Source: a virus
Lineage: Duplodnaviria > Heunggongvirae > Uroviricota > Caudoviricetes
Length of the DNA stretch: 10,106 nucleotides
IMG/VR virus record: IMGVR_UViG_2526164690_000014
Reading direction: 5' to 3' (one strand)
Shown: one piece after another, positions 1,736 to 8,318 of the stretch
Numbering within the stretch: the stretch's first letter is position 1
Layout of the letters: each line of letters opens with the position of its first letter
Notes under the pieces: generated by a model
The model's database searches: none
The model's input: the letters and a program-made list of their open reading frames with translations, nothing else
What the model was told of the DNA's origin: nothing
Made by a program: the position numbers and the translations under genes

Positions 1736-2433
1736 ACACTTGCTCCTTTCAGTCCGAACTTAGCTTTGAGTTCTGCGATCTTCGCCAGAGCCTGTGCACG
1801 ATTTAGAGGTCTACCGCCCATGACAGGAAGTTGTTTTACTGGTTCAGGGATCGCCTCACCACGGTTAATTCTCGCAGTCATATGGACAAGCTCATCTGCG
1901 GCCTTACGGCGTAATTCCGCATCAGTAAGCGCATTGGCCCGCATGTTCTGATACAGGTTGGTAACCAGCCAGTAGTGCGCGTTTGATTTCCACGGATAAG
2001 ACTCCGCATCCGGATACAGGCCTCGCTTCCTGCAATACTCGTAAACCATATCAACCAGCTCGCTGACGTTTGGCAGTCCGGCGATAACGGATGCTTCTTC
2101 CCGGCACCATGCAACAAACTGCCCGGGTGATGGCAGGAATGGTCGATTCTGCCGACGGGCTACGCGCATTCCTGCGTTAACCTGTTCCATTGTGGTGATC
2201 CCGTTTTCCCGGAAAGCCAGAACCCACTGGCGGCGGATTTCGTTCAGTTCGTTCTGGTCACGGTTAGCCAGGCTCGCCGGGAAAGTTGCCAGTAACTGGC
2301 TGAACACACCGTTGATGATCTGCGCTACCTGTTGTACCTGCGGCTTTTCGTCGTACTGTTCCGGCATGTTGTTGGCGATCCGACGCATCTGCTCACGGTC
2401 AAAGTTAACCATCTGTGCGGCGATGTTTTTCAT
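1732..2433 (-). CDS. P: Replication protein P (DnaB helicase loader, 233 aa)
   Basis: Full-length 233-aa ORF MKNIAAQMVNFDREQMRRIANNMPEQYDEKPQVQQVAQIINGVF... is near-identical to lambda P as recalled; its start overlaps the O stop. Confidence 0.95.
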   Translation of the reverse strand: MKNIAAQMVNFDREQMRRIANNMPEQYDEKPQVQQVAQIINGVFSQLLATFPASLANRDQNELNEIRRQWVLAFRENGITTMEQVNAGMRVARRQNRPFLPSPGQFVAWCREEASVIAGLPNVSELVDMVYEYCRKRGLYPDAESYPWKSNAHYWLVTNLYQNMRANALTDAELRRKAADELVHMTARINRGEAIPEPVKQLPVMGGRPLNRAQALAKIAELKAKFGLKGASV

Positions 2434-2854
2434 AAATCCACCCCGTAAATCCAGTCAGTGTTTGTCAGGTCGAGTTTTGGTTTGCTGGCTGTCACGCCTG
2501 CCTGTTGCTTGTTACGGTTGATTTCGAGCTGGGTCCACTTGTCGCGGAGTTTGGCCGGACTCAGCACGTTACCGGACCAGAAGTTGTCCTGGCAGGCCCA
2601 GCGGAAAAGCACACACATATCGCGGTGGTTACGTCCGTCACGTTCACGCATCAGGCGGATATCGTTAGCCCACCCTGCAAAATTCGGTTTTCTGGCTGAT
2701 GGTGCGATGGTCTTCACCATGTCAAACATCCACTCTGCGGCGGTCAGGTCTTCTGCTGTTCCCCACTTGCTGCCGCTCTGAATTGCAGCATCCGGTTTAA
2801 CCACAGAAAGATCGTTTTCTGGCTGGTCAGAGGATTCGCCAGAATTCTCGGACG

Positions 2855-2953
2855 AATAATCTTTTCTTTTTCTTTTGTTATAGTGTCTTTTGTGTCCCCC
2901 TGTTTTGAGGGATCTCCCTCATTTTTAGGGGAACCTCCCTCGTTTTGAGGGAT
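2855..2953. repeat. Lambda-type replication origin inside O: three iteron-like repeats plus an AT-rich region
   Basis: Minus-strand reading gives CATCCCTCAAAACGAGGGAGG, TTCCCCTAAAAATGAGGGAG and ATCCCTCAAAACAGGGGGACAC (about 2953-2896), followed by the A-rich tract ACAAAAGAAAAAGAAAAGATTATTCG. Lambda ori has four such iterons; here I count three. Confidence 0.7.
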
Positions 2954-3030
2954 GCACCATTCTGAGATGTTTTTATTTGGTCCTAAACATGCCGCCTTGC
3001 TGCTTGATAATATTCATTCTGACGAGTTCT

Positions 3031-3039
3031 AACTTGGCT
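3031..3039. repeat. 9-bp target site duplication (AACTTGGCT), left copy
   Basis: Identical 9-mer AACTTGGCT immediately flanks both IS10 termini (3031-3039 and 4369-4377). Confidence 0.9.
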
Positions 3040-3085
3040 CTGATGAATCCCCTAATGATTTTGGTAAAAATCATTAAGTTAAGGT

Positions 3086-3154
3086 GGATACACATCTTGT
3101 CATATGATCAAATGGTTTCGCGAAAAATCAATAATCAGACAACAAGATGTGCGA
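3086..3154 (-). ncRNA. IS10 RNA-OUT antisense RNA (approximate ends)
   Basis: Placed from established IS10 biology (pOUT transcript antisense to the transposase 5' end). In the sequence, CACATCTTGT (3091-3100) and ACAAGATGTG (3142-3151) form the expected inverted repeat spanning the transposase start codon region. Confidence 0.45.
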
Positions 3155-4355
3155 ACTCGATATTTTACACGACTCTCTTTACCAATTCTGCCCCGAATTA
3201 CACTTAAAACGACTCAACAGCTTAACGTTGGCTTGCCACGCATTACTTGACTGTAAAACTCTCACTCTTACCGAACTTGGCCGTAACCTGCCAACCAAAG
3301 CGAGAACAAAACATAACATCAAACGAATCGACCGATTGTTAGGTAATCGTCACCTCCACAAAGAGCGACTCGCTGTATACCGTTGGCATGCTAGCTTTAT
3401 CTGTTCGGGCAATACGATGCCCATTGTACTTGTTGACTGGTCTGATATTCGTGAGCAAAAACGACTTATGGTATTGCGAGCTTCAGTCGCACTACACGGT
3501 CGTTCTGTTACTCTTTATGAGAAAGCGTTCCCGCTTTCAGAGCAATGTTCAAAGAAAGCTCATGACCAATTTCTAGCCGACCTTGCGAGCATTCTACCGA
3601 GTAACACCACACCGCTCATTGTCAGTGATGCTGGCTTTAAAGTGCCATGGTATAAATCCGTTGAGAAGCTGGGTTGGTACTGGTTAAGTCGAGTAAGAGG
3701 AAAAGTACAATATGCAGACCTAGGAGCGGAAAACTGGAAACCTATCAGCAACTTACATGATATGTCATCTAGTCACTCAAAGACTTTAGGCTATAAGAGG
3801 CTGACTAAAAGCAATCCAATCTCATGCCAAATTCTATTGTATAAATCTCGCTCTAAAGGCCGAAAAAATCAGCGCTCGACACGGACTCATTGTCACCACC
3901 CGTCACCTAAAATCTACTCAGCGTCGGCAAAGGAGCCATGGGTTCTAGCAACTAACTTACCTGTTGAAATTCGAACACCCAAACAACTTGTTAATATCTA
4001 TTCGAAGCGAATGCAGATTGAAGAAACCTTCCGAGACTTGAAAAGTCCTGCCTACGGACTAGGCCTACGCCATAGCCGAACGAGCAGCTCAGAGCGTTTT
4101 GATATCATGCTGCTAATCGCCCTGATGCTTCAACTAACATGTTGGCTTGCGGGCGTTCATGCTCAGAAACAAGGTTGGGACAAGCACTTCCAGGCCAACA
4201 CAGTCAGAAATCGAAACGTACTCTCAACAGTTCGCTTAGGCATGGAAGTTTTGCGGCATTCTGGCTACACAATAACAAGGGAAGACTTACTCGTGGCTGC
4301 AACCCTACTAGCTCAAAATTTATTCACACATGGTTACGCTTTGGGGAAATTATGA
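3147..4355 (+). CDS. tnp: IS10 transposase (402 aa)
   Basis: ORF MCELDILHDSLYQFCPELHLKRLNSLTLACHALLDCKTLTLTELGRNLPTKARTKHNIKRIDRLLGNRHLHKERLAVYRWHASF... matches the Tn10/IS10 transposase as recalled, inside the IS10 inverted repeats. Confidence 0.95.
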   Translation: MCELDILHDSLYQFCPELHLKRLNSLTLACHALLDCKTLTLTELGRNLPTKARTKHNIKRIDRLLGNRHLHKERLAVYRWHASFICSGNTMPIVLVDWSDIREQKRLMVLRASVALHGRSVTLYEKAFPLSEQCSKKAHDQFLADLASILPSNTTPLIVSDAGFKVPWYKSVEKLGWYWLSRVRGKVQYADLGAENWKPISNLHDMSSSHSKTLGYKRLTKSNPISCQILLYKSRSKGRKNQRSTRTHCHHPSPKIYSASAKEPWVLATNLPVEIRTPKQLVNIYSKRMQIEETFRDLKSPAYGLGLRHSRTSSSERFDIMLLIALMLQLTCWLAGVHAQKQGWDKHFQANTVRNRNVLSTVRLGMEVLRHSGYTITREDLLVAATLLAQNLFTHGYALGKL

Positions 4356-4368
4356 GGGGATCTCTCAG

Positions 4369-4377
4369 AACTTGGCT
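4369..4377. repeat. 9-bp target site duplication (AACTTGGCT), right copy
   Basis: Same 9-mer as 3031-3039, directly abutting the IS10 inside end. Confidence 0.9.
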
Positions 4378-4640
4378 TCATTGCACCGTTTGACAGGTAA
4401 CTTTGTAATCTCGCTAAGTTGAGAATCGGTGATTCTGTCCATTGGTTTATTCCACCCATAGGTTTTACGCAGAATGGCAAGCAGCACTTTAAACTGTCGC
4501 TTGGTCAGATCTGCGCCTGAATAAGCCTCAATCAGCATATTTGATAGTCTGGCGTAACCATCATCGAGATCTGCCACATTACGCTCCTGTTCGGCAAAGT
4601 TACCTCTGCCGAAGTTGAGTATTTTTGCTGTATTTGTCAT
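4369..4640 (-). pseudogene. O: Replication initiator O, 5' portion (N-terminal 90 codons), truncated by IS10
   Basis: MTNTAKILNFGRGNFAEQERNVADLDDGYARLSNMLIEAYSGADLTKRQFKVLLAILRKTYGWNKPMDRITDSQLSEITKLPVKRCNEAK matches the lambda O N-terminus; AGGAG Shine-Dalgarno upstream. The last codon and stop of the track ORF (4365..4640) are IS10 terminal bases, not native O sequence. Confidence 0.85.
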
Positions 4641-4649
4641 AATGACTCC

Positions 4650-4727
4650 TGTGGATTGATCCAGTAATTCCCTCAGAATTGCATATCAATTTGCTTAGAG
4701 TCCCCGGCGGCCACCGGGGATTTTTTC
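4650..4727 (+). ncRNA. oop: oop-like antisense RNA (antisense to the 3' end of the cII-like gene), with pO-like promoter and intrinsic terminator
   Basis: Plus-strand -35 TTGAGT (4615-4620), 17-bp spacer, -10 CATAAT (4638-4643, overlapping the O start codon on the other strand). A hairpin TCCCCGG-cggcca-CCGGGGA (4701-4720) followed by TTTTTTC ends the transcript. Arrangement matches lambda oop as recalled. Confidence 0.55.
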
Positions 4728-4969
4728 TTTGTGATTTCATCAAGCGCATACTTAAAAGCCCTGCTAATCGGACTGATGTCTGATGCCATTCCGAAAGCAC
4801 ACAAGACCGAAGCAATAAATCTCCAGTCCGTTCTGCTTATCTTCGATTCATGACAGCCAATCATCTTTGCCAGACCGCGCTGGGTAAGCGTTGACAGGTT
4901 GATGAGTAAATCTGTTTCTGCGCGATCAATTTCTCGCTGTGTTAGCTTGCTGTAACTTGCTTGTGCCAT
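4673..4969 (-). CDS. cII: CII-family transcriptional activator (P22 C1-like, 98 aa)
   Basis: ORF MAQASYSKLTQREIDRAETDLLINLSTLTQRGLAKMIGCHESKISRTDWRFIASVLCAFGMASDISPISRAFKYALDEITKKKSPVAAGDSKQIDMQF, located between cro and O as cII is in lambdoid phages. The match to P22 C1 is from memory. Confidence 0.75.
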   Translation of the reverse strand: MAQASYSKLTQREIDRAETDLLINLSTLTQRGLAKMIGCHESKISRTDWRFIASVLCAFGMASDISPISRAFKYALDEITKKKSPVAAGDSKQIDMQF

Positions 4970-5030
4970 TTGTTAATTTTCCTATATTGATATATAGCGG
5001 CACACCCAGTGGATTTGCCGCTGATGTTTG

Positions 5031-5072
5031 CTCACCCGGTTAGAGGTGAAAGGCCAGAACTGTTAAAGAGCA
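5031..5072 (-). promoter_or_regulatory. nutR-like site (boxA plus boxB hairpin)
   Basis: Minus-strand boxA-like TGCTCTTTAACA (plus 5061-5072) followed by a hairpin TCACC-tctaaccg-GGTGA (plus 5031-5049). The same boxA core GCTCTTTAACA and a CTAACC loop occur at nutL (6160-6199). Confidence 0.55.
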
Positions 5073-5078
5073 ATTTAC

Positions 5079-5264
5079 TTATGCCGCTTGGCGGTAAGCA
5101 CTTTCTTGATACTTCAGGGCGCCAGCTGTAACGATTTCCAATCGATAGGCGTCTTTCTCTGGGATAACTTCTTTCCACTGAGAGACTGCTGCATCGCTAA
5201 TGCCTAGTGCTTTAGCAACAGCACGCTGGGTTCCGAAGTGGTCAATAACATCTTTTTTGTACAT
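5079..5264 (-). CDS. cro: Cro repressor (P22/phage 21 type, 61 aa)
   Basis: MYKKDVIDHFGTQRAVAKALGISDAAVSQWKEVIPEKDAYRLEIVTAGALKYQESAYRQAA matches P22 Cro as recalled; GGAG Shine-Dalgarno; divergent from the repressor gene. Confidence 0.9.
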   Translation of the reverse strand: MYKKDVIDHFGTQRAVAKALGISDAAVSQWKEVIPEKDAYRLEIVTAGALKYQESAYRQAA

Positions 5265-5278
5265 AGACTCGCTCCGAA

Positions 5279-5344
5279 ATTAAAGAACACTTAAATTATC
5301 CACCAAAGGAATCTTAAGTCAAGTTTATTTAAGATGTCTTAACT
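5279..5344. promoter_or_regulatory. OR operator cluster with divergent PR/PRM promoters
   Basis: 18-bp sites with 7-4-7 architecture: ATTAAAG-AACA-CTTAAAT (5279-5296) and ATTTAAG-ATGT-CTTAACT (5327-5344), consistent with the P22-type half-site ATTTAAG. A third site between them is likely but I could not place it cleanly. Confidence 0.6.
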
Positions 5345-5995
5345 ATGAATACACAACTGATGGGTGAGCGTATTCGCGCTCGCAGAAAAGAACTCAAGAT
5401 TAGGCAGGCTGCCCTTGGCAAGATGGTTGGCGTGTCTAATGTTGCTATTTCCCAATGGGAGCGATCTGAAACTGAGCCCAATGGCGAAAACCTATTGGCC
5501 TTAGCCAAGGCTTTGCAGTGCTCCCCTGATTACCTGTTGAAAGGAGAGGATAGTCTTTCAAACATTGCCTATCACAGCAGGCATGATCCAAGAGGTTCGT
5601 ATCCTCTAATTAGTTGGGTAAGCGCAGGATGTTGGATGGAAGCTGTAGAGCCATATCATAGGCGTGCAATAGATAACTGGTACGACACAACGGTAGATTG
5701 TTCTGAAGACTCTTTTTGGCTCGACGTTAAAGGTGATTCAATGACTGCCCCGGCAGGACTGAGTATTCCTGAAGGGATGATTATTCTCGTCGACCCAGAA
5801 GTCGAACCACGTAATGGAAAGCTGGTAGTCGCCAAACTTGAAGGAGAAAACGAGGCGACATTCAAAAAGTTAGTTATTGATGCCGGTAGAAAATTCCTGA
5901 AACCACTCAATCCACAATACCCAATGATTGAAATCAATGGGAACTGTAAAATCATTGGCGTTGTCGTTGATGCCAAGCTAGCAAACCTTCCTTAA
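5345..5995 (+). CDS. c2: Prophage repressor, P22 C2 / phage 21 cI type (216 aa)
   Basis: MNTQLMGERIRARRKELKIRQAALGKMVGVSNVAISQWERSETEPNGENLLALAKALQCSPDYLLKG... with a helix-turn-helix N-domain and LexA-like C-domain (…GDSMTAPAGLSIPEGMIILVD…KLEGENEATFKKL…). Near-identical to P22 C2 as recalled. No Shine-Dalgarno, as expected for a PRM transcript. Confidence 0.9.
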   Translation: MNTQLMGERIRARRKELKIRQAALGKMVGVSNVAISQWERSETEPNGENLLALAKALQCSPDYLLKGEDSLSNIAYHSRHDPRGSYPLISWVSAGCWMEAVEPYHRRAIDNWYDTTVDCSEDSFWLDVKGDSMTAPAGLSIPEGMIILVDPEVEPRNGKLVVAKLEGENEATFKKLVIDAGRKFLKPLNPQYPMIEINGNCKIIGVVVDAKLANLP

Positions 5996-6017
5996 GGGGC
6001 TTTCGCCCCTTTTTTAT
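5995..6017 (+). terminator. Rho-independent terminator after the repressor gene
   Basis: Stem AGGGGC/GCCCCT with loop TTTC followed by TTTTTTATTT, directly after the repressor stop codon. Confidence 0.7.
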
Positions 6018-6029
6018 TTCCCGTTAAAA

Positions 6030-6113
6030 ATCAAAGACAAACTAAATTCGCGCCCATAAAATTAAGTTTTCTTCAAAAATGCACTTGACCAAAAAATTAA
6101 GAGGTCTTAATTT
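6030..6113 (+). promoter_or_regulatory. pL promoter with OL operators
   Basis: -35 TTGACC (6085-6090), 17-bp spacer, -10 TAATTT (6108-6113). Operator-like 7-4-7 site AATTAAG-AGGT-CTTAATT (6095-6112) overlaps the promoter; weaker sites at about 6060-6077 and 6030-6047. Confidence 0.6.
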
Positions 6114-6159
6114 TAAGCCGTCAGCAGGAGGCTGGAAGCCAAACGGAACAGATTGGCAG

Positions 6160-6199
6160 GCTCTTTAACATCGACGAACTCTCAACCTAACCGTTGAGA
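6160..6199 (+). promoter_or_regulatory. nutL-like site (boxA plus boxB hairpin)
   Basis: boxA-like GCTCTTTAACA (6160-6170) followed by a 7-bp stem hairpin TCTCAAC-ctaacc-GTTGAGA (6180-6199), between pL and N. Confidence 0.6.
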
Positions 6200-6309
6200 C
6201 CAGAACTTGAGTGGTTTTGGGGATGGCGCGAATTGCAGCTGCAAGACAGCGATCGAGAAGATAAGCACCTCGACGCGTCATGCGCCAAAGCCACTTAAAG
6301 GAGACCATC

Positions 6310-6615
6310 ATGGTAACCATTGTCTGGAAAGAATCCAAAGGTACGGCAAAAAGCCGCTACAAAGCTCGCAGAGCAGAACTTATTGCCGAGCGACGCAGTA
6401 ATGAAGCACTGGCGCGAAAAATTGCGCTAAAGCTCTCTGGTTGCGTCAGAGCAGACAAAGCAGCATCACTAGGAAGCCTTTGCTGCAAGAAGAAAGAAGA
6501 AGTTGTTCGAAAAAATAGAAGTATTTATTACAAGGATTCAAACCCATTAGGAAACAAAATACATGCAGTCCAAAAAATAAAATTGTACAGTAAACTACCG
6601 TACGGTGCTTATTGA
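6310..6615 (+). CDS. N: Antitermination protein N, phage 21 type (101 aa)
   Basis: AAGGAGA Shine-Dalgarno 5 nt before the ATG at 6310. N-terminal arginine-rich motif MVTIVWKESKGTAKSRYKARRAELIAERR matches the phage 21 N RNA-binding peptide as recalled. First gene downstream of pL/nutL. Confidence 0.8.
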   Translation: MVTIVWKESKGTAKSRYKARRAELIAERRSNEALARKIALKLSGCVRADKAASLGSLCCKKKEEVVRKNRSIYYKDSNPLGNKIHAVQKIKLYSKLPYGAY

Positions 6616-6617
6616 GT

Positions 6618-6956
6618 ATGCTTATGGTGAAAAAGACTATTTATGTTAATCCTGACCGCGGACAAAACAGAAAAGTATCTGATAGAGGTCTTACATCTCG
6701 AGACAGGAGGAGAATAGCGAGATGGGAAAAGAGGATAGCATATGCATTAAAAAACGGTGTAACACCTGGATTTAATGCTATAGATGACGGTCCTGAATAT
6801 AAGATTAATGAAGACCCAATGGACAAAGTTGACAAAGCATTAGCAACACCATTTCCTCGCGATGTCGAAAAAATTGAAGATGAAAAATATGAGGATGTAA
6901 TGCACAGAGTTGTTAATCACGCTCACCAACGAAATCCAAATAAAAAATGGTCATAG
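6618..6956 (+). CDS. Hypothetical protein (112 aa; basic N-terminal half, acidic C-terminal half), function unknown
   Basis: ORF starts 3 nt after the N stop (ATG at 6618 or 6624; weak Shine-Dalgarno, possible translational coupling). AT-rich, with many AGA/AGG/ATA codons. Translation MLMVKKTIYVNPDRGQNRKVSDRGLTSRDRRRIARWEKRIAYALKNG...EDEKYEDVMHRVVNHAHQRNPNKKWS has no homolog I recognise. Followed directly by an intrinsic terminator. Confidence 0.5.
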   Translation: MLMVKKTIYVNPDRGQNRKVSDRGLTSRDRRRIARWEKRIAYALKNGVTPGFNAIDDGPEYKINEDPMDKVDKALATPFPRDVEKIEDEKYEDVMHRVVNHAHQRNPNKKWS

Positions 6957-6977
6957 CCCACTTCGGTGGGTTTTTTA
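6957..6977 (+). terminator. Rho-independent terminator
   Basis: Stem CCCAC/GTGGG with loop TTCG followed by TTTTTTATT, immediately after the stop codon at 6954-6956. Confidence 0.7.
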
Positions 6978-7089
6978 TTGGCTGAACTAACCTAATTTAT
7001 TACAGCAAGCCACGCAGTGAAATGGGTGTGACTTGTGTTGGTCGCCAGAAAATGAAATTAGGCAGCAAACCACTTATTTGAGGTGAGAT

Positions 7090-8079: not shown

Positions 8080-8153
8080 GCGCGGCGTTACCGCATACCA
8101 ATTACGCTTCACTCGAGGTCGTTTTTCGTTATGTAATAAATAAGGAGCACACC

Positions 8154-8318
8154 ATGCAATATGCCATTGCAGGGTGGCCTGTTGCTGGCTGCCCTTCCGA
8201 ATCTTTACTTGAACGAATTACCCGTAAATTACGTGACGGATGGAAACGCCTTATCGACATACTTAATCAGCCAGGAGTCCCGAAAAATGGATCAAACAAT
8301 TATGGCTATCCAGACTAA
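8154..8318 (+). CDS. cIII: CIII protein (FtsH/HflB inhibitor, 54 aa)
   Basis: AAGGAG Shine-Dalgarno; [54 protein letters not shown] matches lambda CIII as recalled. Below the size cut-off of the supplied ORF track. Confidence 0.85.
   Translation: MQYAIAGWPVAGCPSESLLERITRKLRDGWKRLIDILNQPGVPKNGSNNYGYPD

Follow-up and report, generated by a model that had tools for sequence, protein, structure and literature searches.

The DNA analysed here, referred to as the window, is a stretch of 10,106 nucleotides that holds the early region of a lambdoid prophage, reversed relative to the usual lambda map. The minus strand carries ninE, a methyltransferase gene, ninB, ren, P, O (split), cII and cro. The plus strand carries a gene for a LexA-family repressor, an N-like gene, cIII, kil, gam, bet and exo. 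The segment around the start of O and the end of cII holds a promoter, a predicted small RNA and a terminator, all on the plus strand. The features at this segment and the insertion next to it are listed below.

3040-4368: complete IS10 of 1329 bp, annotated as an ISVsa5 family transposase, which splits O
4369-4640, minus strand: lambda-type 5′ fragment of O (ORF 4365-4640; Phage_rep_O), cut by IS10 and annotated as a pseudogene, which carries pO
4557-4650, plus strand: full pO region, -94 to -1, within the 5′ end of the O gene, identical to lambda at 93 of 94 positions
4615-4620, plus strand: pO -35 hexamer TTGAGT, from the promoter scan, the same as in lambda pO
4635-4643, plus strand: pO extended -10 element TGtCATAAT (CATAAT at 4638-4643), with a 17-bp spacer from the -35 hexamer
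4649-4664, no strand assigned: LexA-box-like site CTGTGGATTGATCCAG (CTGT-N8-ACAG with one mismatch), across the predicted start of the RNA
4651-4727, plus strand: predicted oop RNA of 77 nt, G4651 to C4727, with ends taken from the ungapped alignment with lambda oop
4651-4694, plus strand: 5′ stem-loop I from folding, with a 10-bp outer and a 7-bp inner stem
4697-4726, plus strand: tO intrinsic terminator, with stem 4697-4707/4714-4724, loop 4708-4713 and T6 at 4721-4726
4673-4969, minus strand: cII of the phage 21 / VT1-Sakai type, 98 aa (Pfam Phage_CII PF05269, E = 2.7e-32), the predicted antisense target

Over its full length the window is 99.7% identical to a chromosomal prophage of E. coli O111:H11 strain 88.0502. 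Matches to O26:H11 strains cover 87% of it, and the insertion sequence has no counterpart there. The host of the oop module here is an imm21-like, non-Stx prophage of O111:H11 / O26:H11 STEC. The block from N through the repressor gene and cro to cII is 97.5% identical to phage 21, lambda imm21 and DE3, and the window Cro is identical to P22 Cro at 60 of 61 residues (98%). The N-like ORF starts like phage 21 N, and cro and the repressor gene are P22-like (6280-6615, 5079-5995); P22-like cro and repressor genes beside a phage 21-like N are consistent with the known relatedness of imm21 and P22 immC. A lambda imm21 or DE3 laboratory construct had been suspected from this combination. That origin was rejected on the end-to-end STEC prophage match, on the O26:H11 matches that lack the IS, and on the oop body, which is unlike that of phage 21 and DE3. 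The closest phage match for 4629-7000 is mEp235 (98.4%). Further along the window, Rfam places Lambda_thermo, the cIII thermoregulator, over the cIII start (8141-8199, 88.5 bits).

IS10 is inserted 272 bp into O, and a 9-bp target duplication, AACTTGGCT, borders it on either side (3031-3039 and 4369-4377). Inside the element, Rfam RNA-OUT lies at 3085-3154 on the minus strand (98.8 bits), and the outside end of IS10, with pOUT, is directed at the O remnant and P. The C-terminal O remnant (2427-3034) is frameshifted according to PGAP in the matching genome, and about three iteron-like repeats (..TTTTGAGGGA..) are visible at ~2893-2955, compared with the four that the phage 21 annotation lists. 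Replication of the prophage is probably defective. The oop–cII module itself is intact.

The cII stop codon (TGA, 4673-4675) lies 22 nt from the oop start, and the last 55 nt of this CII-family gene, stop codon included, lie under oop. The overlap between lambda oop and cII is likewise 55 nt (PMC3349717). The 22-nt spacing recurs in 75 of the 76 lambda-type and 933W-type loci among the matches listed. The initial annotation had described the partner gene as P22 C1-like, and this label did not survive comparison of the proteins. BLASTP of the window CII against P22 C1 gave no alignment at E <= 100, and a forced MAFFT alignment of the two gives 28%. The same protein is 33% identical to lambda CII (BLASTP, E = 5e-9) and 98% identical to VT1-Sakai CII, and it is near-identical to the CII proteins of phage 21 and HK629 save for the C-terminal ~20 residues. 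The window protein is therefore not nearer P22 C1 than lambda CII, and a P22 C1-type partner was rejected; the gene is of the phage 21 type. The P22 label probably came from extrapolating the neighbours, of which cro is P22-like. Inside the 5′ end of cII, the sequence TTGCTGTAACTTGC (TTGC-N6-TTGC) at 4947-4960 corresponds to the CII site/pRE annotated in VT1-Sakai and phage 21. Divergent as it is, the window CII appears to keep the lambda-type recognition repeat.

The predicted promoter overlaps the O start codon, and the CAT of its -10 hexamer (4638-4640) is the complement of the O ATG. It is thus a sigma-70 promoter placed over the start of the gene downstream of cII and directed opposite the pR operon. 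In lambda, the oop 5′ end lies at 38675 and the -10 element covers the positions 8-13 nt before it. A mutation in the -10 element eliminates oop expression, and pO function also draws on sequences 45-94 nt upstream of the start (PMC5869508). These lambda-defined positions are all conserved in the window. The LexA-box-like site at 4649-4664 falls within a 33-bp block that is conserved among lambdoid phages. A LexA site has been reported in lambda oop-pO (PMC5869508, citing Lewis et al. 1994), and from its sequence the window site may be the equivalent. Consensus scans are not significant alone, either for promoter-like sites (2 found, 1.8 expected) or for terminator-like sites (3 found, 0.9 expected). 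The element stands above chance because of its homology to lambda, namely the near-identity of pO and the ungapped alignment along the 77-nt oop.

In that alignment, the predicted RNA is identical to lambda oop at 56 of 77 positions, and the conserved 33-bp block at pO and the oop 5′ end is present as well. The 78 nt at 4650-4727 fold into two hairpins with an energy of -31.2 kcal/mol (z = -4.5), a stability that no shuffled sequence out of 200 reaches. In silico, the segment therefore specifies a self-terminating RNA in the range of ~60-80 nt, with a 5′ hairpin and an intrinsic terminator. The tO hairpin (4697-4724) has 11 pairs, six of them G-C, closed by a 6-nt loop. It begins 47 nt past the predicted start at G4651, and its T-run ends at +76.

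Much of what the initial annotation had proposed for this interval holds. The TTGAGT/CATAAT promoter that it placed over the O start is present at 4615-4643, the RNA is directed into the 3′ end of a minus-strand cII-like gene (ORF 4673-4969, 55-nt overlap), and the hairpin that it drew is borne out by RNA folding. Its GC-rich hairpin with a T-run is found at 4697-4726, but the distance that it gave, 65-75 nt downstream, fits the end of the RNA and not the start of the hairpin. The likeness to the lambda oop arrangement is also confirmed, as promoter, length, two hairpins, terminator and the overlap with a CII-family gene all match, and the two RNAs align without gaps.

The terminator is the part of the fold that is shared among related loci. 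In 19 distinct sequences of the lambda and 933W types, its helix stays 100% paired. Both partners have changed in two of the pairs, C-G to U-A and G-C to C-G, and a single partner has changed in three. Sliding the partner columns as a control lowered pairing to 37-68%. RNAalifold returns the same tO helix for the lambda-type and 933W-type RNAs. It recovered the terminator alone, with no stem-loop I common to the two types. Each variant forms its own 5′ hairpin, and the register of stem-loop I differs between the lambda type and the window type.

A hairpin at this position might instead serve the minus-strand pR transcript, for example by terminating it or marking a site for processing between cII and O, and not form the end of a plus-strand RNA. 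Judging from the fold, the complementary RNA would form an equally stable hairpin. However, the minus strand has an A-run before the hairpin and no T-run after it, and the structure is not an intrinsic terminator in that direction. The hairpin also falls within cII itself, spanning the positions 22 to 49 nt ahead of the stop codon, and every variant has its T-run on the plus strand. We find a role in the pR transcript barely credible and read the hairpin as tO, the end of the plus-strand oop RNA.

Searches of Rfam returned no oop match at the gathering thresholds. At E <= 10 they returned chance-level matches alone (His_leader, ctRNA_p42d and others), far under the cut-offs. Rfam appears to hold no oop family, and the absent match says nothing against membership. 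A literature search for a transcript of the window-type oop in O157 or Stx phage RNA-seq gave reviews alone.

Sliding identity along the region changes twice. The O 5′ fragment and pO are lambda-like, at 97-100% identity. Between ~+3 of oop and the terminator end (4669-4728), the window is ~70% identical to lambda, phage 21 and HK629, and 100% identical to VT1-Sakai. The cII body upstream of the terminator is again the same as in phage 21 and HK629. These three segments indicate that the oop and CII C-terminus segment is a small exchangeable module. The phage 21-type cII body is seen with two alternative C-terminus/oop modules, one lambda-like (..KKRP..TERSEQIQMEF) and one 933W-like (..KKKSPVAAGDSKQIDMQF). 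Phage 21 departs from lambda both within the terminator, where its loop is longer by 3 nt, and just after it, where window-type bases follow the T-run.

To place the window among related phages, IMG/VR was scanned for the conserved -10/5′-oop block. The scan gave at least 119 loci, a sample that is selected on the block and is uninformative on oop genes that lack it. The oop bodies among the matches listed are of the following types.

Lambda-like body: 48 loci, with a lambda-type cII body in ~26 and a phage 21-type body in 21
933W-like body: 28 loci, with a phage 21-type cII body in 28/28
P22-like body: 39 loci, mostly with a C1-like partner; 2/39 gave unrelated ORFs

Among these matches, at least four different -35/upstream contexts combine with the body types, and not every combination was seen. 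The 5′ hairpin and the hairpin with a U-run are kept in all three body types of the same set. As the RNA is cis-encoded, its complementarity to the target is automatic, and the promoter and terminator alone must survive recombination. The idea that antisense control is conserved across the mosaic junction, put forward in the initial annotation, was right in spirit but is not new (Hayes et al. 2012, PMC3349717).

The conservation of the element could also be passive. Its motifs may persist within the coding sequences for the O N-terminus and the CII C-terminus and within a 33-bp recombination linker, with no functional RNA made from a defective prophage. The element does overlap coding sequence on the opposite strand, and its position in or beside coding sequence means that part of the conservation could stem from protein constraints. 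The conserved 33-bp stretch has been described as a module boundary sequence (PMC3349717), O is broken by IS10 and frameshifted, and the consensus scans alone are, as noted above, not significant. Yet the terminator pairing is held by compensatory changes though the CII C-terminus differs, and three unrelated bodies keep a hairpin and U-run at this position. Lambda, P22 and BTP1 all transcribe an element of this architecture, and pO differs from a functional lambda promoter at one position of 94. Weighing these points, we judge a passive relic highly improbable.

oop is the textbook antisense regulator of the lambda lysis–lysogeny decision. The interval is, with high confidence on the sequence comparisons above, the oop gene of a lambdoid prophage, in which lambda pO would drive a 77-nt non-coding RNA (~4651-4727) ending at tO, opposite the pR operon cro-cII-O. 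The RNA would be made from pO, which is reported to be LexA-limited in lambda, and would end at tO. It would then pair perfectly with the cII-O mRNA, across the last 55 nt of cII and the 22-nt cII-O spacer. Cleavage of the duplex by RNase III would lower CII synthesis and favour lytic growth, as in lambda. Pairing, the action of RNase III, lowered CII and lysis are the steps of the lambda oop mechanism (PMC5869508, PMC2327240, PMC12197685). For this strain we infer transcription, the exact RNA ends, the dependence on RNase III and the effect on lysogeny by analogy. In lambda, the effect of oop on CII after SOS induction is small (PMC2327240), which suggests that the physiological weight of the RNA is modest.

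Of 5426 complete E. coli genomes, 769 (~14%) carry the 92-nt oop/cII-3′ module, with up to four copies in each. Many Stx1a phages share it at 98.6% identity over 434 bp, and it is found three times in O26 RM10386, which also holds the IS-less version of the prophage. In this damaged prophage, oop might act mainly in trans, targeting the cII mRNA of lambdoid or Stx prophages that reside in the same cell and have the same cII 3′ end, and bias them to the lytic course on induction or superinfection. Plasmid-borne lambda oop does act in trans on infecting phages, including lambda imm21 (PMC3349717). However, those trans effects were obtained with multicopy plasmids and the output of a single-copy pO may be too low, and each co-resident phage carries its own oop copy. 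A main role in trans is a tentative proposal that we consider unlikely. A further proposal, quite improbable as a whole, is that the intact pO-oop of this replication-defective, IS10-split prophage might target, in trans, cII 3′ ends of identical sequence in co-resident Stx1a-type prophages. If so, the prophages would be linked in a small antisense network that shifts Stx phages towards lysis. Separately, the proposal holds that the 933W-type oop/CII C-terminus would be an exchangeable sub-gene module, with the recombination junction inside the terminator. Our preferred reading remains the oop gene acting on the cII-O mRNA that it overlaps.

No ncRNA feature lies over the module in the RefSeq records listed, in which the sole feature is a CDS for a CII family transcriptional regulator. 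This and the lack of an Rfam model amount to an annotation gap, one that could be closed with a covariance model of the three body types. As a discovery the element counts for little, and it is mainly an annotation point. Such a model could aid studies of Stx phage induction, where the CII level influences lysis versus lysogeny.

Of the systems known, lambda OOP (pO-oop-tO, 38675-38599) has the same plan as the window element. Both RNAs are 77 nt long, with pO over the O start, a 5′ hairpin and an intrinsic terminator, a CII-family gene overlapped by 55 nt and a LexA-box-like site at the start. They differ past ~+3, where the bodies are just ~70% identical. The registers of stem-loop I are different, GGAUUGAU/AUCAAUUU compared with AGAUCCAG/CUGGAUUU, two compensated pairs differ in the terminator stem, and the partner CII proteins share only a third of their residues.

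The closest oop bodies are found in Stx phages. VT1-Sakai is 100% identical to the window over 4669-4728, with a cII that is 98% identical, and the Stx1a phages and PA28 share the 434-bp stretch at 98.6%. An identical 77-mer is present in seven fetched loci. For 933W and BP-4795, the window-type body rests on a database match (95.9-96.8%) and was not read directly. Compared with these Stx phages, the window is an imm21-like non-Stx prophage with IS10 in O. Phage 21, lambda imm21 and HK629 share the cII body with the window at 100% over ~4759-4908 and have the same cro, repressor and N neighbours. Their oop body is of the lambda type and their CII C-terminus is lambda-like, whereas those of the window are of the 933W type. 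The HK629 record carries an annotated oop feature opposite the same cII body.

P22 oop, which is antisense to c1, and BTP1 OOP are more distant. The window does not have a P22-type oop body, and what it has in common with these RNAs is the -10 element, the first ~16 nt (GUGGAUUGAUCCAGU) and the antisense layout. Their body and terminator are unrelated to those of the window, the RNA is shorter (~63 nt), and orf48 separates oop from the replication gene. The P22 record annotates a promoter and a terminator for oop, and both P22 oop and BTP1 OOP have been detected by RNA sequencing (PMC13397905, PMC7067206).

The wider family has been described before. Hayes et al. 2012 aligned the cII-like/oop/O-like regions of more than 20 lambdoid phages (PMC3349717, Figs S1/S2), including lambda, 434, 21, 933W, Stx1, Stx2, VT2-Sa, H-19B, phi4795, HK97, HK022, P22, ES18, HK620 and Sf6, and relied on the 33-bp block that is conserved at pO and the oop 5′ end. 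A 2017 review, which cites Nejman-Falenczyk et al. 2015, reports that the cII-O regions of Stx phages contain oop-like sequences (PMC5488031). The element in the window is thus one that is already known, and the retention of oop across lambdoid mosaic modules is already published (PMC3349717; PMC5488031).
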